DNA from: a virus
Strand: one strand, 5' to 3'
DNA: 25,233 bases
Virus genome (UHGV): UHGV-0079576
A program made the position numbers and the translations under genes. Shown here piece after piece: positions 1 to 5,959 of this stretch. How positions within the stretch are numbered: position 1 is the stretch's first letter; each line of letters starts with the position of its first letter. The notes below the pieces were generated by a model. That model worked only from the letters and a program-made list of their open reading frames with translations. It searched no databases and had not been told where the DNA came from.

Positions 1-184
1 AAGGGCGCGGCTGTCGGATTAAAGCCGCGGGACAAAGTCCATGAAGAAGAATAAGCATCTCTCTCCTCCAGAGAGACGTATTTATATTACTAAGCATTAA
101 AAATGGTTTAAATCCTCAGATTAACCTTAATTTCAGGTAAGTCTTATTTCATTTCTTTGCGTCACGCCCGGCGCACATCAAAAA

Positions 185-269
185 CCACAGAGCCTTTCAG
201 GGGTGAGCTTACGGGATGGTCAGTGTGACTTTCTCTGTGGGCTGGTCACCCCCAGGCGCAGGCTCACCC
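185..269 (+). promoter_or_regulatory. Structured 5' leader upstream of the TerB-like gene with interdigitated inverted repeats
   Basis: Reverse-complementary pairs read directly: ccacagag 185-192 / ctctgtgg 233-240; ggggtga 200-206 / tcacccc 246-252; gggtgagc 201-208 / gctcaccc 262-269. The last two pairings share the same 5' arm and are mutually exclusive. Confidence 0.3.
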
Positions 270-288
270 ACTAAAAGGAAACGTCACG

Positions 289-714
289 ATGTTTGGTATT
301 TTCAAAAAGAAAACCCGCAAGGCTATTACTGAAGTGAAGAAGATGGAGAACCGCGACGCCGTGGAAGCGACCGTCTGGGGCGCATATTCCATTGCATATG
401 CTGACGGTACCTGCGACGCGAAAGAAATCGCAGTGCTGGAGAAAACCATTGCAGCGCTTCCTTCCTTTGCGCCGTTCTCCGGTGAGATTGCCCAGATGAG
501 CGCCAATATCCGCGCCCGTTATGAAGCGTCACCTCGTAGTGCGAATGCTCAGGCTTTGCGTGAACTGGCTGATGTGGCAGGAACCGCCGAAGCGGTTGAT
601 GTGCTGTGCCTGTGTCTGGATATCGCTGACCAGGACGGCATTGGTCCGGATGAAGAAGCACAGCTCAAGAAAATTGCGCAGGCGCTGCAGTTGCCGCTGG
701 AGCAGTATCTGTGA
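289..714 (+). CDS. TerB-family (tellurite-resistance TerB-like) protein, 141 aa
   Basis: ATG at 289; all-helical sequence with two TerB-type motifs (SIAYADGTCDAKEIAVLEK and LCLDIADQDGIGPDEEAQLKKIA); overall resemblance to plasmid TerB recalled from memory. Confidence 0.6.
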   Translation: MFGIFKKKTRKAITEVKKMENRDAVEATVWGAYSIAYADGTCDAKEIAVLEKTIAALPSFAPFSGEIAQMSANIRARYEASPRSANAQALRELADVAGTAEAVDVLCLCLDIADQDGIGPDEEAQLKKIAQALQLPLEQYL

Positions 715-863
715 AAAGTGCGCGCCTTGTGCTGGCTGCCATCCTGCTGTTTCTGGTAGTGGTGGTGGATTTCACCGGACGGCTGATGTCGGTGCTGGCA
801 GATGGTGTGCTGGTGGCAATGGCGCTGGTCGTCCTCCTGCCTTTACTGCGCAAATCTGAATAA
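711..863 (+). CDS. Small hydrophobic membrane peptide (50 aa, two predicted helices), translationally coupled to the TerB-like gene
   Basis: GTG at 711 overlaps the TerB stop (GTGA); GGAG at 699-702 lies 8 nt upstream; translation VKSARLVLAAILLFLVVVVDFTGRLMSVLADGVLVAMALVVLLPLLRKSE; below the ORF-track length cutoff. Confidence 0.4.
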   Translation: MKSARLVLAAILLFLVVVVDFTGRLMSVLADGVLVAMALVVLLPLLRKSE

Positions 864-911
864 CATCACACAAAAGGCATCTGCGGGTGCCTTTGACGGG
901 GTGTTTTTTAC

Positions 912-933
912 GGGCCGCTGGTGGCCCTTTTTT
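912..933 (+). terminator. Putative intrinsic terminator between the TerB module and the holin
   Basis: GC stem gggcc(912-916)/ggccc(923-927), 6-nt loop, then TTTTTT 928-933; a second hairpin aaaggca/tgccttt lies at 873-894. Confidence 0.45.
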
Positions 934-951
934 ATTTACAGGAGAAAAAGT

Positions 952-1344
952 ATGTCTGAACCCTTATCCGGTTCCGGCACGGCTGCGGCGCTCGGCGGGG
1001 CGACGGTATTCGGGCTCTTTACCGGAACGGATTTCGGGATTGTGTTTGGTGCATTTGCGGGAGCGTTGTTTGTGGCAACGATGCCGCAGTCACTTTCAGC
1101 CTGGCGTGTGGCTGCGCATTTTCTGGTGTCGTTCATTGTCGGCGTGCTGGGGGCACGTGTGCTGTCAGCCTGGATTGCATCAAAAACAGGTTATGACGGT
1201 ACATCTGCGGATGCACTTTGTGCAGTGCTGGTGTCAGTGGTGTCGGTGAAGATTCTGTCGTTCATCCACCAGCAGGATATTGCATCACTGGTGTCCGGTG
1301 TGTTTTCCCGCCTGCGGGGTGGAGGAGGCGGCAATGTTAAGTAA
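952..1344 (+). CDS. Putative holin / lysis membrane protein (130 aa, about 3 hydrophobic segments, Gly-rich C-terminus)
   Basis: ATG at 952 with AGGAG 8 nt upstream; hydrophobic stretches; position immediately upstream of the endolysin; the track ORF 802-1344 is treated as an N-terminal over-extension. Confidence 0.55.
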   Translation: MSEPLSGSGTAAALGGATVFGLFTGTDFGIVFGAFAGALFVATMPQSLSAWRVAAHFLVSFIVGVLGARVLSAWIASKTGYDGTSADALCAVLVSVVSVKILSFIHQQDIASLVSGVFSRLRGGGGGNVK

Positions 1345-1609
1345 CCTTCCCGGATTGCTGAATGTGGCGTTATGCACGGTTATCGTGCTGACGCTCTTTT
1401 TTTATCGACGCCGTGATACCAGACATAAGCCGCTGATGTCATGGCTGGCCTGGCTGCTGATGCTGCTGTATGCCTTTGCGCCCCTCAGCTATCTGTGTGG
1501 TCGCCCGTTAGCAACGGGCTGGCTGGAAGTGTTTTTTAACCTGCTGTTCTGCGTGCTGGTGATACGCGCTCGCGGGAACGTCGCAAGAATCTTTCCATTG
1601 TTGAGGTGA
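1334..1609 (+). CDS. Second lysis-associated membrane protein (holin/antiholin-like, 91 aa, 3 predicted TM segments)
   Basis: ATG at 1334 preceded by GGAGGAGG; overlaps the holin 3' end; three hydrophobic helices; stop overlaps the endolysin start region. Confidence 0.5.
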   Translation: MLSNLPGLLNVALCTVIVLTLFFYRRRDTRHKPLMSWLAWLLMLLYAFAPLSYLCGRPLATGWLEVFFNLLFCVLVIRARGNVARIFPLLR

Positions 1610-1611
1610 AT

Positions 1612-1989
1612 ATGTCGGGTAAATTCAGATTTAGTCGTCGCAGCGAAAAGAATCTGGAGGGCGTTAAACCACAGCTGGTTGCTGTCGTTCGCCGTGCGCT
1701 GGAGCTGACGGAGGTTGATTTCGGTATTACGGAAGGGCTGCGCACGAAAGAACGCCAGAAACAGCTGGTTGCGGCAGGGAAAAGCCAGACCATGAACAGC
1801 CGCCACCTGACAGGTGATGCGGTGGATGTTGTGGCTTACGTTGGCAGCCAGGCGTCATGGGACTGGCCTCTGTATGAGAAAATCGCGCAGGCATTTAAGC
1901 AGGCTGCCGCAGAGCTGAAAACCCCCATCGAATGGGGCGGCGACTGGAAAACACTGAAAGACGGGCCTCACTTTCAGCTGAAACGATAA
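1612..1989 (+). CDS. Endolysin, peptidase M15 family (L-alanyl-D-glutamate endopeptidase type)
   Basis: ATG at 1612 with GAGG 5 nt upstream (track ORF starts at GTG 1606); translation resembles the T5-type M15 endolysin (…VKPQLVAVVRRALEL…FGITEGLRT…HLTGDAVDV…GGDW…GPHFQL). Confidence 0.85.
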   Translation: MSGKFRFSRRSEKNLEGVKPQLVAVVRRALELTEVDFGITEGLRTKERQKQLVAAGKSQTMNSRHLTGDAVDVVAYVGSQASWDWPLYEKIAQAFKQAAAELKTPIEWGGDWKTLKDGPHFQLKR

Positions 1990-1996
1990 ATAAGAC

Positions 1997-2034
1997 AAAG
2001 CCCCGGTTGTTGGAGCAATCGGGGCTTTGTGTTT
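1997..2034 (+). terminator. Putative intrinsic terminator after the endolysin
   Basis: 13-bp stem aaagccccggttg(1997-2009)/caatcggggcttt(2016-2028) with a 6-nt loop, followed by gtgttt. Confidence 0.55.
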
Positions 2035-2070
2035 ATGGATTCATTATGTGAATGCGCATGGGGATTATTC

Positions 2071-2268
2071 ATGCCAGTAAAGCCTAACACGACGAAAGAT
2101 AAATTTGGAGATGATCTGATGATAAAAGCAGAAACCACCCCGCAGGGGGCTGATGATGCCGCAAAAATCATCGCGGTATGCCGGGGCATCAGACACATAC
2201 TGACGCCAGTTGCATGGATTATTTGTACCGCACTGGTTGCATACACAACAATTTATTTAAACAGATGA
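2071..2268 (+). CDS. Hypothetical small protein with a C-terminal transmembrane anchor (65 aa; alternative start at 2119)
   Basis: In-frame ATG at 2071; hydrophobic C-terminus ILTPVAWIICTALVAYTTIYL; stop overlaps the next ORF start (ATGA at 2265-2268). Confidence 0.4.
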   Translation: MPVKPNTTKDKFGDDLMIKAETTPQGADDAAKIIAVCRGIRHILTPVAWIICTALVAYTTIYLNR

Positions 2269-2351
2269 GTGCTGATTTTATTCGGGCGGTGGCTTTTGCC
2301 ATTCGTCTTGTGGCGGTCGCTGTTCTGATTTGGGTTGTACGTTGGTGGTGA
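2265..2351 (+). CDS. Hypothetical 28-aa single-helix membrane peptide
   Basis: ATG at 2265 overlapping the upstream stop; translation MSADFIRAVAFAIRLVAVAVLIWVVRWW; stop TGA 2349-2351 lies 1 nt before the next ATG; not in the ORF track (too short). Confidence 0.3.
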   Translation: MSADFIRAVAFAIRLVAVAVLIWVVRWW

Positions 2352-2352
2352 T

Positions 2353-2535
2353 ATGACGCGAAAACACTGGACACACAGAATGCCGCGAACGGCGGCGAAA
2401 TGGGCACTGGTAGCGATACTGGTGCCTTTTTTCCTGGTGGGATGCGTCAGCCTGGATAAAGCGCGCCAGCTTTTCGATACAGCTTCTCAGGTCTGTGAAA
2501 TTGTCGACGGTGTTCGGCAGTGTCTGCAGAACTGA
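2353..2535 (+). CDS. Predicted small lipoprotein (lipobox LVGC; mature part about 30 aa with 3 Cys)
   Basis: ATG at 2353 (alternative ATG at 2380); signal-like KWALVAILVPFFLVGC followed by CVSLDKARQLFDTASQVCEIVDGVRQCLQN; GGTGGTG upstream. Confidence 0.45.
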   Translation: MTRKHWTHRMPRTAAKWALVAILVPFFLVGCVSLDKARQLFDTASQVCEIVDGVRQCLQN

Positions 2536-2706
2536 ACGCCCGAAAGAGCAGAATATTTTGCTGAAAAATGAAGGGTGCGCCAGCGTCCGGAAAGCATGAA
2601 ATTCTGTGTTTGTGGCTACTCAATAAAATAAATTCTTTCTGTCGCCGCGAATACTCAAATGTTGATCAGTGCCCGGTGCGGCGACGGGCTTCGATATCAG
2701 GAGACG

Positions 2707-3006
2707 ATGATGGAAAAAACAGAAAACAAACCGATTGTAATTGGTGCTGATGCTGCTCCGTTTAAGTTTGAGTTGTCTCAACTGGTGGAGATGCGTATCA
2801 GTGATGAATGGGGTGAAGTTAAAGCCCGCGCGCAGTATGCGGATGGCGAAAACCAGTACCTGATCCACTACAAAGCTGCTGATGGTCGTGCCACAACTGA
2901 GTGGTTTGGTGAGTCAATGCTGGAAGCAACAGAAGATGATCGTCATCCTGGTTGTCCGGTATTTGCTGGTATGGAATTACCGAAAGGCGCGGTCGTTACT
3001 GAGTAA
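2707..3006 (+). CDS. Hypothetical small acidic protein (99 aa) directly upstream of cos
   Basis: ATG at 2707 with AGGAG 5-6 nt upstream; no recognisable family from sequence alone. Confidence 0.5.
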   Translation: MMEKTENKPIVIGADAAPFKFELSQLVEMRISDEWGEVKARAQYADGENQYLIHYKAADGRATTEWFGESMLEATEDDRHPGCPVFAGMELPKGAVVTE

Positions 3007-3858: not shown

Positions 3859-5746
3859 TGCAGCCGGTGCGATAGCCACAGGGCTTTTATCTCTCAATAT
3901 TCCGGTTCCACTGACGACGGTTCAGTGGGCTGATCAACATTATTATCTGCCGAAAGAATCTTCATACACTCCCGGACAATGGGAAACCCTGCCGTTTCAG
4001 GTTGCCATTATGAACAGCATGGGAAATGACCGGATCCGCACCGTTAATCTGATTAAATCGGCGCGCGTTGGTTACACCAAAATGCTGTTGGGGGTGGAGG
4101 CTTATTTTATTGAGCATAAATCCCGTAACAGTCTGCTTTTTCAGCCAACAGATTCTGCGGCAGAAGATTTCATGAAATCTCATGTTGAGCCAACGATCAG
4201 GGATGTCCCTGCATTGCTGGAGCTGGCTCCATGGTTCGGAAGAAAACATCGTGATAATACACTCACCCTGAAGCGTTTTTCCTCCGGTGTGGGTTTCTGG
4301 TGCCTGGGTGGTGCCGCTGCTAAAAACTACCGTGAAAAATCTGTGGATGTGGTCTGCTATGACGAACTCTCCTCGTTTGAACCGGATGTGGAAAAAGAAG
4401 GTTCGCCGACGCTGCTTGGTGATAAACGCATCGAAGGTTCGGTATGGCCTAAATCCATACGCGGCTCAACGCCAAAAATCAAAGGTTCCTGTCAGATTGA
4501 GAAAGCCGCGAATGAATCTGCGCATTTCATGCGGTTTTATGTCCCTTGCCCTCATTGCGGGGAGGCCCAGTATCTGAAGTTTGGCGATGATGCGACGCCG
4601 TCTGGCCTGAAATGGGAGAAGGGTAAACCGGAAACGGTGTATTACCTGTGTGAACATAATGGCTGTGTGATCCGGCAGTCGGAACTTGACCAGACCGACG
4701 GACGCTGGATTTGTGACAATACCGGGATGTGGACGCGTGATGGCCTGACATTTTACAGCGCCGGTGATGAGGAGATGCCGCCACCGCGCTCAATCTCGTA
4801 CCACATCTGGACGGCGTACAGTCCGTTCACCACCTGGGTGCAGATTGTCTACGACTGGCTGGATGCGCTGAAGGATCCAAACGGTGTTAAGACGTTTATT
4901 AACACCACGCTCGGGGAGCCCTATGAAGAGGCCGTGGCAGAAAAACTGAGCTTTGAGTTGTTGCTGGAAAAAGTCTGCCACTATGGCGCGCAGGTTCCCC
5001 TGCGGGTGGTTTACCTGACCGCCGGGATCGACTCCCAGAAAGATCGCTATGAAATTTATGTCTGGGGCTGGGCTCCCGGCGAAGAAGCCTTTCTGATTGA
5101 TAAGCAAATTATCATGGGGCGACCGGAAGACGAGGACACCCTTAAACGTGTTGATACGGTGATCCGGAAAAAATATCGTCATGCTGACGGTACTGAAATT
5201 TCCATTTCCCGTGTCTGCTGGGATACCGGTGGTATCGACCAGGACATTGTGTATCAGCGTTCCAGGAAACACGGCACTTTTTTTGTGCTTCCCATAAAAG
5301 GGGCATCGGTGTACGGCAAGCCGGTGATCACCATGCCCAAAAAGCGCAACCAGCGTGGTGTGTTTTTGTGTGAGGTGGGCTCCGATACCGTCAAGGAAAT
5401 GCTGTACGCCCGTTTTGCCCTGCCGGTGGTTTCTGCCAGTGAAGCCGCCCCGTATACCTTCCGTTTTCCGGATAACCCCGACATTTTTTCGGAAGAAGAG
5501 GCGCGTCAGATCGTGGCGGAAGAGCTGGTGGAGAAGGTGGTTAATGGCAGGGTGAAACTGCTGTGGGATAAAAAAGGGCGACGCAACGAAGCCCTCGACT
5601 GCCTGGTATATGCCTATGCTGCCCTGCGTATTTCAGTTCAGCGGTGGCAGCTGGATCTTGAAGCACTGGCCCGTGCCAGAAGAGATGAGCAGGACGACGA
5701 TGAGATGAGTCTGGAAGAAATCGCGGCTGCACTGAGTGGAGGATAA
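3830..5746 (+). CDS. A: Terminase large subunit (lambda gpA-like)
   Basis: Strong collinear similarity to lambda gpA (…[27 protein letters not shown]…[14 protein letters not shown]…[13 protein letters not shown]…WDTGGID…); start chosen at ATG 3830 (GGTGG upstream) inside the Nu1 3' end; track ORF begins at 3788. Confidence 0.95.
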
Positions 5747-5749
5747 AGA

Positions 5750-5959
5750 ATGGTTTATACGCATGAAATGCTTTGTGATGCCCGCCGGGCATTACATGAA
5801 CTGATGATCGGACGTGCTGTGGTTTCCGTCAGTAAGGACGGGCGTCAGGTTCAGTATTCGCGGGCGACGATTGGTGAACTACGCCAGTATATTGAAGAGC
5901 TGGAAAGTGCGCTGGGCGTATCCGGACGGCGTCGTGGCCCGGCAGGAGTGGGGCTGTGA
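5750..5959 (+). CDS. W: Head-tail joining / head completion protein (lambda gpW-like)
   Basis: 69 aa; ARRALHELMIGRAVVSVSKDGRQVQYSRATIGELRQYIEELE…RRRGPAG parallels lambda W. Confidence 0.85.
   Translation: MVYTHEMLCDARRALHELMIGRAVVSVSKDGRQVQYSRATIGELRQYIEELESALGVSGRRRGPAGVGL

Follow-up and report, generated by a model that had tools for sequence, protein, structure and literature searches.

What a TerB-family gene and a short ORF for a hydrophobic peptide do just ahead of the holin genes of a prophage, and how they are expressed, is the question raised by the stretch of DNA analysed here (the window: 25,233 nucleotides of the virus genome UHGV-0079576, one strand; all features described below lie on the plus strand). 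Our analysis points to a late-operon cassette in which a leader RNA would occlude the ribosome-binding site of the first gene, and in which two coupled products, TciA and TciB, would act at the envelope. We regard this as the best overall explanation and give it a probability of about 0.6.

A conserved gene pair

The first gene, tciA (289-714), starts with ATG and encodes a TerB-family protein of 141 aa. A Pfam profile search matches it to TerB (PF05099) with 32.3 bits against a gathering cut-off of 24.4 (E=1.3e-7), it falls into PHROG 632 (E=4e-65), and it shares 86.5% identity with TciA of phage P1 over all 141 residues (100% coverage). The twin TerB-like motifs that an earlier note had seen in this ORF hold up well. 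In an alignment of 22 sequences from diverse relatives they appear as A38-D39-G40...E46 and A113..D116-G117...E122, with D39, E46, A113 and G117 invariant and A38, G40, D116 and E122 at least 90% conserved. A profile of the 22 relatives reaches the solved TerB structure 2JXU (E=9.5e-18, positions 10-137) and also 2OU3 (COG3793; E=1.9e-5); the single TciA sequence as query reaches neither. AlphaFold2 gives a six-helix bundle, of medium quality with a pLDDT of 75.6 and a single good model among the five, and a Foldseek search of the PDB with this model returned nothing at E<=0.001, the best related entry being 2h5n with a TM of 0.43. Calls of TciA with an N-terminal extension, for example P0128, were treated as artefacts; the extension falls within the RNA element described below and is not conserved.

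The second gene, tciB (711-863), starts with GTG and encodes a DUF3927 peptide of 50 aa. Its GTG overlaps the tciA stop by 4 nt (GTGA), and its Shine-Dalgarno sequence GGAG lies within the 3' end of tciA (699-702), 8 nt before the GTG; all of these features, previously noted, can be read directly in the sequence. A Kyte-Doolittle scan finds two hydrophobic stretches, at about residues 5-19 and 25-45 with DFTGR between them, in agreement with the two-helix hydrophobic peptide proposed earlier. The matches to DUF3927 (PF13064; 54.5 bits against a cut-off of 25, E=1.2e-14) and to PHROG 1470 'TciB-like' (E=3e-23) define TciB as a typical member: the match is full-length, the size is the same, the motif VDFT(G/S)..MSVLADGVLV....WPL(L/I)K is present, and no difference from the family was found. 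The family has no demonstrated function. Relatives recovered by HMM search include P1 TciB (E=2.4e-16 against the TciB family HMM), a protein of SP-076 and ChrisDB gp7.

The two ORFs travel together, as a co-occurrence check suggested in the earlier note now shows. An intact tciB directly follows the TerB gene in 80/80 close loci, in 72 of 73 JLK-type loci and in 52 of 64 more distant viral loci, and the 4-nt overlap is kept in all 80 close loci and in 71 of the 72 TciB-positive JLK-type loci. Variable sites in tciB are distributed 27/17/35 over the codon positions, and its other two frames are mostly closed. Judged by the profile scores above, both ORFs are more than chance, and tciB is a real gene; the prediction that TciB is a small membrane peptide, translationally coupled to TciA, is supported. 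The identification of 289-714 as a TerB-family homologue of P1 TciA, and of 711-863 as TciB, is close to certain on sequence grounds. We gave no weight as interaction evidence to P0182, a 196-aa fusion of TerB and DUF3927 seen only once, on one contig, with a frameshift-like junction.

DNA matching tciAB is present in 602 of 5,426 complete E. coli genomes, and the pair is kept in P1/P7, in phage-plasmids, in the virulent N4-like phage SP-076 and in the jumbo phage ChrisDB. Its presence in virulent N4-like and jumbo phages means that the pair is not specifically a lysogen module. The annotation of tciA-tciB(-tciC) in the P1 record AF234172 is presumably that of Lobocka et al. (2004). In P1, as in the window, a DUF3927 TciB lies directly downstream of TciA with overlapping stop and start, tRNA genes or remnants are nearby, and function is assigned 'by homology' only. 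The two settings differ, however, in that P1 has a third gene, tciC, and no structured leader, the latter also being lacking in P7. Moreover, the P1 pair lies in a plasmid prophage, where the C1-operator-controlled ban promoters flank it on one side and ban, in the same orientation, on the other, and it would probably belong to the ban operon, whereas the window pair occupies the slot between Q and the holin in a lambdoid prophage.

The standalone pairing, which the earlier note did not recognise as described, is thus that of P1; PGAP/RefSeq annotates both genes, the pair has Pfam and PHROG families of its own, and the P1 pair is discussed in several papers (PMC9603915, PMC6799933, PMC10695390). 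It is transcribed in lytic P1vir infection (bioRxiv 10.64898/2025.12.28.696737), and a CRISPRi screen found tciA, tciB and tciC to be dispensable (PMC10695390). In this literature, functional testing goes no further than that dispensability in P1, and no phenotype, including tellurite, is reported. As a gene pair, therefore, the window adds little: one more copy of a common, annotated phage cargo. Its distribution over virulent phages, the P1 ban stretch and late operons points to a role in phage development rather than in lysogenic conversion.

With respect to TerB of the terZABCDE operon (2JXU, Klebsiella pneumoniae), TciA belongs to the same Pfam family and has the same duplicated A-D-G...E acidic motif. 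It differs in standing alone, without TerZ, TerA, TerC, TerD or TerE, its neighbours being the leader, tciB, terminators and holins, and in having a 50-residue peptide as partner in place of the multi-pass TerC.

The late-operon setting

Downstream of tciB, a first terminator-like hairpin with a U-run occupies 862-909 (the fold of 861-955 has -30.9 kcal/mol, z = -2.4). A terminator scan recovers a second, intrinsic-terminator-like hairpin with a T-tract at 912-933, formed by GGGCC-GCTGGT-GGCCC (912-927) followed by TTTTTTATTT; here, too, the earlier note had read a hairpin, T-tract and holin ribosome-binding site correctly. The latter (GGAG, 941-944) precedes the first holin gene (952-1344, ATG at 952; Pfam Phage_holin_8, E=8e-23), after which come a second holin gene and an M15 endolysin gene. 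There is no tciC: the gap between tciB and the holin gene consists of 88 nt of hairpins without an ORF. Many more E. coli prophages share the 912-933 stretch than carry tciAB.

PasA and PasC sRNAs are reported to adjoin holin genes, near TerB genes, in EPEC prophages (bioRxiv 10.64898/2026.05.13.724894). The 864-951 spacer was rejected as either of them, since the probe sequences are not found in the window even with three mismatches and PasA lies on the opposite strand.

In a near-identical prophage of E. coli M8, a gene for a Q-like protein (PHROG 753, E=2e-75) and an STnc100-type late leader RNA (107 bits) lie about 1.6-3 kb upstream of what is base 1 of the window, and in phage JLK-2012 the gene order is Q, tRNAs, tciA, tciB, a nanS-like esterase gene and S-R-Rz. 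In Stx phages, stx occupies the same slot between Q/late promoter and lysis genes. The earlier placement of the pair in a cargo slot between the late leader and the holin is upheld as regards the interval between a Q-type antiterminator/late promoter and the lysis genes, although the late leader itself lies outside the window. A simple scan found no sigma-70-like promoter in 1-2000. The window has no tRNA genes, tRNA-like pieces being located upstream, outside it. Window positions 152-933 are best explained as one accessory-gene cassette, comprising leader, tciA and tciB, that a lambdoid E. coli prophage carries in its late operon.

A structured leader RNA upstream of tciA

Directly 5' of tciA lies a leader of about 130 nt (~152-288), matched by the covariance model R1 with 152.9 bits (E~1e-41); the boundary of its similarity to other phages is at ~159. 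It is found before tciA in 80/80 close loci and has one copy in the window. That 152-288 is conserved as a structured RNA had been passed over in the earlier note.

The element opens with the hairpin P0, in which 159-163 pair with 170-174 around the loop ACGCCC (164-169). Four of its five pairs are changed on both sides, 99% of alignment cells are paired, and its stem versions include GCGCC/GGCGC, CACATC/GATGTG, TCTGTC/GACAGA and ATGCGT/ACGCAT. The P0 loop (165-169) in turn pairs with 254-258, which reads AGGCG here and GGGCG in most relatives, to form the pseudoknot PK1. Across the leader family, PK1 is found in at least nine complementary versions at one position (CGCCC/GGGCG, CGCUC/GAGCG, GGCUC/GAGCC, UCUCAC/GUGAGA, CGCAC/GUGCG, UCGCA/UGCGA, UGCCC/GGGCA, CCGC/GCGG and CCGCA/UGCGG), and cognate partners average 4.9 Watson-Crick pairs as compared with 3.3 for non-cognate ones. 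Helix P1 joins 185-192 (CCACAGAG) to 233-240 (CUCUGUGG); three of its pairs are changed on both sides, 97% of cells are paired, and versions include CCGUAGAG/CUCUACGG, CCGCAGA/UCUGCGG, GAGAG/CUCUC, CCGAG/CUCGG and CCACCGA/UCGGUGG.

The long helix P3 pairs 193-210, which begins with the anti-Shine-Dalgarno CCUUU (193-197), with 260-278, which ends with the tciA Shine-Dalgarno AAAGG (274-278). In a broad alignment of 24 sequences (A5), double-sided changes affect 11 of its 14 pairs, with 97% of cells paired, a covariation that derives from divergent, model-aligned members in an alignment that leans towards the model. Among tciA-type leaders, the Shine-Dalgarno/anti-Shine-Dalgarno part (P3a) and the P3 core barely vary, and the pairing there is conserved rather than covarying. 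Helix D (213-221 with 244-252) has 76-87% of cells paired in the tciA-type alignment; in A5, all nine pairs are changed on both sides and 83% are paired. It overlaps with a small alternative hairpin, P2 (218-222 with 226-230), which is 96% paired and shows no covariation. P1 and a fully extended P3 with D are sterically exclusive, nucleotides 192 and 193 being adjacent, and the element is therefore probably a two-state switch. In addition, the covariation of P0 and PK1 implies that transcripts would come from upstream of base 159.

An unbiased MAFFT alignment of 39 distinct leader sequences (A2) has 93.6% of cells paired, against 37-55% when the partners are slid, with double-sided changes in 12 of 40 pairs and a covariation score reached by none of 500 shuffles. 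In the model-fitted A5, double-sided changes occur in 25 of 31 pairs and 93.4% of cells are paired (37-52% when slid). RNAalifold on its own recovers P0 and the Shine-Dalgarno-containing P3. Searches of Rfam 15, including C4, IsrK, STnc100 and riboswitches, gave nothing relevant to the leader at E<=10 (140-300) and no leader family in 1-3000 at E<=1, and we found no published description of this RNA.

The block could alternatively be an element at the DNA level, such as a recombination linker where modules meet or a protein-binding site, or else a short coding region. In this regard, it lies exactly at a mosaic boundary, with BLAST similarity to other phages starting at ~159, and PPyecE_EH1910 has 159-356 at 92% identity, though its TciA is only 45% identical; furthermore, a 38-codon ORF exists at 216-332. 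Against this stand the compensatory double changes in both alignments and the helices that divergent copies keep despite unrelated sequence. Read from the opposite strand, the many G-U pairs in the helices would become A-C mismatches, and R1 gives the minus strand 14 bits, about one tenth of the ~153 of the plus strand. As for the ORF, inspection of individual sequences suggests that it is not preserved in ChrisDB-type and rha-type leaders; lying within the RNA element and not being conserved, it was treated as an artefact. We consider a DNA-level or coding explanation hardly credible and the leader very probably a structured RNA. From the position of P3 we infer a regulatory role that includes hiding the tciA ribosome-binding site, and control through that site is likely, though graded below the existence of the fold.

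The leader resembles ribosome-binding-site-occluding leaders and translational riboswitches in that a helix pairs with the Shine-Dalgarno sequence. In T4, the mRNA of the homing endonuclease I-TevI has a leader that occludes its ribosome-binding site, and both kinds of leader precede accessory or potentially harmful genes in strongly transcribed operons, homing endonucleases among them. The window element is nevertheless far more elaborate, with five helices that include a long-range loop pseudoknot, it is common to unrelated downstream genes, and it matches no Rfam family.

The leader in other phages

The architecture is not confined to tciA: in P22, phi80, epsilon34 and Stx phages, divergent copies stand in front of rha, ant, KilA-N, HNH and GIY-YIG genes. 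Its end coincides exactly with the Ant start codon in YYZ-2008 and with that of the GIY-YIG nuclease gene in epsilon34. The leaders of rha, ant and GIY-YIG genes likewise match no Rfam 15 family at E<=5. Conversely, tciA homologues without the leader occur in P1/P7, PhiR41-type phage-plasmids, SP-076, ZY21, AF and BUCT194, four of which also carry tciB; the leader is thus not needed for TciAB function.

Proposed model and alternative explanations

These findings allow us to propose a model for the cassette. It would be read as part of the Q-antiterminated late transcript, while unmodified polymerase would be halted at the flanking terminators. By occluding the ribosome-binding site, the leader would hold down the translation of tciA or make it conditional, and TciB would be produced through coupling whenever TciA is. 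In ter operons, TerB is reported to associate with the membrane protein TerC, and TciB may tether TciA to the inner membrane in a similar manner; a membrane complex of TciA and TciB is predicted at about even odds. Such a complex might act on the envelope in phage development, for instance by countering superinfection or insults that form pores or collapse the PMF, a biological role that we put forward as a doubtful proposal.

The pair may instead serve lysogenic conversion, giving the host of a resident prophage superinfection exclusion or protection against colicins or tellurite. It is frequent in E. coli prophages, and the terminator-like hairpins that bracket the cassette are reminiscent of morons; passages of PMC9603915 and PMC6799933 quote the historical ties of the ter operon, to which TerB belongs, with phage inhibition and colicin resistance. 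Of the features of a moron, the terminators after the genes (862-909 and 912-933) are seen; the simple sigma-70 scan of 1-2000, however, detected no promoter of its own, and the covariation of P0 and PK1 would place the transcript start upstream of base 159. Neither TciA nor TciB matches any of the 5,027 defence models of PADLOC-DB 2.0 at E<=1, so that the superinfection-exclusion module expressed from the prophage, as envisaged in the earlier note, finds no support in promoter or defence-model searches. In P1 the pair lies between the C1-operator-controlled promoters and ban and is transcribed lytically, virulent N4-like and jumbo phages carry it without forming lysogens, and the other ter genes, held necessary for activity according to a view quoted in a passage of PMC8421299, are absent. 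Lysogenic conversion is thus unlikely. A role in lysis timing, as an antiholin-like factor or PMF stabiliser working with the adjacent holins, would fit a small two-segment membrane peptide encoded immediately upstream of two holin genes in a late operon. In P1/P7, the phage-plasmids, SP-076 and ChrisDB, however, the pair is near tRNA or early genes and far from the lysis genes, and PPyecE_EH1910 and JLK-2012 have an esterase gene between it and the holin gene, which makes this role improbable.

As to the leader, it might work like c4 of P1/P7, the CI RNA of P4 or IsrK of Gifsy-1, where a processed upstream sRNA pairs with downstream sites, including the ribosome-binding site, as a phage-specific 'immunity' determinant. 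The points of resemblance are several: an upstream loop is complementary to sites near the ribosome-binding site, the complementarity covaries between phages, and the PK1 versions are mutually incompatible, with the preference for cognate pairing given above, as is typical of specificity determinants. In line with this notion, many of the controlled genes are antirepressor-like (Rha, Ant, KilA-N), and the P1 ant operon is controlled by c4 through such logic, according to a reference cited in a passage of PMC3632133. On the other hand, the interacting segments all lie within about 130 nt in a compact element that ends at the start codon, the single copy in the window leaves no trans target here, TerB and homing endonuclease genes are also among those controlled, and the Rfam C4 and IsrK models match neither this leader nor those of rha, ant and GIY-YIG genes up to E 5-10. 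A c4-like mode of action is accordingly quite improbable, less so than one in lysis timing, and the leader that gates the ribosome-binding site in cis within the late-operon cassette is preferred.

A wider reading of that leader is possible, and we offer it tentatively: it may represent a previously unrecognised, widespread class of phage RNA, a bistable, doubly pseudoknotted and signal-responsive translation gate on late-operon accessory genes, with a cassette-specific pair of loop and target. The genes gated in this manner would comprise tciA, rha, the antirepressor-like ant and KilA-N genes, and HNH and GIY-YIG homing endonuclease genes, and candidate triggers would be, for example, a ligand, a protein of phage or host origin, or folding kinetics under antiterminated RNA polymerase. 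What makes the leader of interest is that a compact, strongly covarying fold is present in phage genomes as intensively studied as those of P22, phi80 and the Stx phages and is missing from Rfam 15, and that it links accessory genes previously without known common control. It would also offer an experimental handle on how phages keep hitch-hiking genes in check where late-operon transcription is very strong. Among the genes preceded by such leaders in Stx phages are antirepressor-like ones that adjoin the toxin/lysis region. Finally, the leader gives reason to think that the rha start sites annotated for P22 and phi80 are incorrect.

A structured leader upstream of tciA

The region deserves notice for its first 130 bases: these are part of a strongly covarying structured-RNA family, apparently undescribed, which stands before accessory genes in numerous lambdoid phages, P22, phi80 and Stx phages among them. 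Similarity to other phages sets in sharply at base ~159. In PPyecE_EH1910, identity reaches 92% over 159-356, yet TciA is just 45% identical. The alignment of upstream regions shows a conserved stretch of ~130 nt preceding tciA, with compensatory changes, whose range extends from lambdoid phages of E. coli and Klebsiella to the Erwinia jumbo phage ChrisDB.

The leader contains conserved helices that take in the Shine-Dalgarno (SD) sequence of tciA. An explicit helix model was tested against 39 distinct leaders aligned with MAFFT (alignment A2). On the plus strand it comprises helix P0 (159-163 with 170-174), the pseudoknot PK1 (P0 loop, 165-169, with 254-258), helix P1 (185-192 with 233-240), helix P3 (193-210 with 260-278), in which CCUUU (193-197) pairs with the SD AAAGG (274-278), and helix D (213-221 with 244-252). 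Paired cells make up 93.6% of A2, a share that falls to 37-55% once the 3' partners have been slid along by 1-3 columns; both-sided changes are seen in 12 pairs, and the covariation score is reached by none of 500 shuffles. RNAalifold, to which the helix model was not supplied, recovers P0 and the long P3 with the SD, together with extra covarying pairs (A199-U272, replaced by G-C in 8 sequences; 210-260, A-U in 19 and U-A in 15). Additionally, the leader is strand-specific, with many G-U pairs and a score of 153 bits on the plus strand versus 14 on the minus strand under a covariance model built from A2.

The leader as a family

In late operons the leader recurs upstream of accessory genes that are unrelated. 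The covariance model detects it upstream of tciA in all 80 close loci, and gives no match upstream of tciA in P1, P7, PhiR41, SP-076, ZY21, AF or BUCT194. Divergent copies found with the same model precede KilA-N genes in pPE4 (53 bits) and JLK-2012 and, at 46 and 26 bits, the HNH endonucleases of two metagenomic phages; a further copy occurs in locus L038 (58 bits). In BLAST searches with the divergent copies, the pPE4-type leader appears in 235 phage records and the type of locus L135 in 75, among them Stx1a and Stx2a phages, phi80, Sf101, epsilon34, P22, ES18, BTP1 and HK544. These leaders follow the lysis genes or, in the case of the Stx1 phage YYZ-2008, separate R from Rz; in phi80 and epsilon34 the element is directly 3' of an annotated terminator. 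Its 3' end falls precisely at the Ant start codon in YYZ-2008 and at that of the GIY-YIG nuclease in epsilon34.

The annotated rha starts within the leader both in P22 (locus position 975; L239, NC_002371, element 901-1049) and in phi80 (locus position 693; L240, element 594-734). In these phages the leader ends at an SD-preceded ATG, at ~1044 and ~729 respectively, and the annotation probably makes both rha genes too long.

Among the divergent copies, the architecture is retained in other sequence. PK1 occurs with the loop/partner versions CGCCC/GGGCG, CGCUC/GAGCG, GGCUC/GAGCC, UCUCAC/GUGAGA, CGCAC/GUGCG, UCGCA/UGCGA, UGCCC/GGGCA, CCGC/GCGG and CCGCA/UGCGG, the mean number of Watson-Crick pairs being 4.9 for cognate versus 3.3 for non-cognate combinations. 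The P3 core likewise varies (GGGUGAGCC/GGCUCACCC, AUGAACCUCG/CGAGGUUCAU), with an 18-bp form in P22 and an unbroken 22-bp form including the SD in an Stx2a phage. In A5, a broader alignment for which 24 family members were fitted to the model, both-sided changes affect 25 of 31 pairs and 93.4% of cells are paired, compared with 37-52% in slid controls; this alignment is biased towards the model, and A2 and the PK1 series are therefore given more weight. No family in Rfam 15 matches the tciA leader or those of its divergent relatives that were tested, and the literature search returned no description of it.

A truncated leader, reduced to P0 plus the 5' strand of P1 (32 bits), lies ~500 nt upstream of a complete tciA leader in a metagenomic phage (L136, 794-890), which suggests recombination at leader elements.

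Possible working of the leader

The leader probably restrains translation of the first gene, or makes it conditional, through occlusion of the ribosome-binding site. P1 adjoins P3 without a linker (192/193) and has its partner strand inside the apical loop formed by the P3 + D hairpin, so that P1 and the fully extended P3 + D would be mutually exclusive; D would also compete with a small hairpin, P2. Given these exclusions, the RNA looks bistable: an SD-free state could combine P1, P2 and possibly the core of P3 in an H-type pseudoknot, and an SD-hidden state the full P3 + D helix. Alternatively, the element could act in a c4/CI/IsrK-like control in which the P0 loop is the specificity determinant, a notion favoured by the diversity of PK1 and by the antirepressor-like cargo; against it stand the absence of an Rfam C4 or IsrK match and the compactness of the leader element.

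The tciA and tciB genes

The gene tciA (289-714, plus strand) begins with ATG and encodes 141 aa. Its stop overlaps, as GTGA, the GTG start of tciB (711-863, plus strand), which has a GGAG (699-702) 8 nt upstream and encodes 50 residues, with DFTGR between two hydrophobic stretches. The earlier note's description of the two ORFs, and of the hairpin with T-run and the holin ribosome-binding site that follow, is borne out by the sequence.

That note had also proposed TerB-family membership, with a profile search as the check. In that search TciA exceeds the Pfam TerB cut-off (32.3 bits; cut-off 24.4) and matches PHROG 632 (E=4e-65). Moreover, a profile of 22 diverse relatives hits the solved structure of Klebsiella TerB (2JXU) at E=9.5e-18; among these relatives the duplicated A-D-G...E motif varies little or not at all. 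On these matches the product is assigned to the TerB family. An AlphaFold2 model (six-helix bundle; disordered, basic N-terminus, MFGIFKKKTRK; pLDDT 75.6) gave no significant Foldseek match and thus contributes nothing decisive. TciB is a typical DUF3927 member: it scores 54.5 bits against Pfam DUF3927 (cut-off 25) and, with E=3e-23, matches PHROG 1470 ('TciB-like inhibition of cell division or resistance to colicin'). Its ORF, though small, evolves like a gene, with variable sites of 27/17/35 by codon position and with 175 synonymous versus 189 non-synonymous codon differences. The identity of both genes and their coupling geometry are among the points that the analysis shows.

Three gene calls in this region were set aside: a 38-codon ORF (216-332) within the leader RNA and P0128 (165 aa), a TciA extended N-terminally through it, look like a frameshift or gene-calling artefact, as does P0182 (196 aa, one contig), a TciA-TciB fusion.

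TciA is 86.5% identical to its P1 counterpart, and the pair is tciA-tciB of P1. There the order is tciA, tciB (54 aa), tciC (35 aa) and a tRNA gene; the window lacks tciC. The pairing, which the earlier note took to be undescribed, is thus an ordinary, already-annotated cargo pair: PGAP names the two products in the prophage of mouse E. coli strain M8, which is 99.9% identical to the window, 'tellurite resistance TerB family protein' and 'DUF3927 family protein', and several papers mention the genes. They appear as unexplained cargo in the variable region of P1-like phage-plasmids (PMC9603915) and, called 'morons', in D6-like elements (PMC6799933), and are non-essential in a CRISPRi screen of P1 (PMC10695390). 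Neither protein matches a PADLOC defence model.

DNA matching window 150-950 is contained in 602 of 5,426 complete E. coli genomes. TciB lies directly behind TciA in all 80 close viral loci, in 72 of 73 loci of the JLK-2012 type and in 52 of 64 of the ChrisDB type; the loci that lack it all have a TciA of at most 45% identity and contigs of non-enterobacterial appearance. P7 and ~108-kb phage-plasmids likewise carry the pair, as do the virulent N4-like Salmonella phage FSL SP-076 and ChrisDB; Pseudomonas phage ZY21 has it truncated.

tciA or tciAB adjoins tRNA genes in unrelated phages, comprising plasmid prophage, lambdoid, jumbo and Pseudomonas phages: P1 (L005), P7 (L089), JLK-2012 (L006), ChrisDB (L091) and ZY21 (L092). 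The M8 prophage (L008) carries tRNA-like remnants just upstream of the window (5036-5186, 5837-5918). 'Actinobacillus phage vB_Apl-pPE4' (L001, PP818812.1), with a second leader copy upstream of its KilA-N gene, shares ~90% DNA identity with E. coli prophage sequence over leader, tciAB, holins and endolysin; Actinobacillus as its host looks doubtful.

Genomic context and expression

The M8 prophage carries, in order, a DUF968 protein, RusA, a Q-like antiterminator (PHROG 753, E=2e-75), an STnc100-type RNA, iraM on the opposite strand, the tRNA-like remnants, the tciAB cassette and the lysis genes; in JLK-2012 the order is Q, three tRNAs, tciA, tciB, a nanS-like esterase and S-R-Rz. The proposed slot between late promoter and lysis genes is borne out by both orders, the late leader itself lying outside the window. 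Between the Q-like gene and the cassette, ~1.2-1.8 kb before window base 1, lie the STnc100-family RNA (107 bits) and then the anti-adaptor gene iraM (L008 4207-4420 and 4459-4785); the former is most likely the late-promoter leader.

Two tandem terminator-like elements on the plus strand separate tciB from the holin: a predicted hairpin with U-run (862-909) and a GC-rich hairpin (912-927) followed by a T-run (912-933 in all). The region 862-933 was considered as PasA or PasC and is neither. The 860-950 stretch is common to many more E. coli prophages than have tciAB. The holin gene (Phage_holin_8 in Pfam; plus strand, GGAG 941-944, ATG 952) is followed by a Phage_holin_3_7 holin and an M15 endolysin.

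Expression from the prophage, as the earlier note envisaged, is unsupported: the scan of window 1-2000 found no sigma-70-like promoter. A role of tciAB in phage development rather than lysogenic conversion is favoured, since the P1 tci genes are situated between the C1-operator-controlled ban promoters and ban, they are transcribed in P1vir lytic infection (bioRxiv 10.64898/2025.12.28.696737), and the pair occurs in virulent phages. TciB could serve as an inner-membrane anchor for TciA, and the putative complex may work on the envelope in infection, either excluding superinfecting phages or colicins or stabilising the membrane ahead of holin triggering.

Directly 3' of the endolysin gene, window 1991-2114 gives sub-threshold Rfam matches to His_leader (minus strand, E=0.089) and sar RNA (plus strand, E=0.47), which probably reflect chance or a terminator region.
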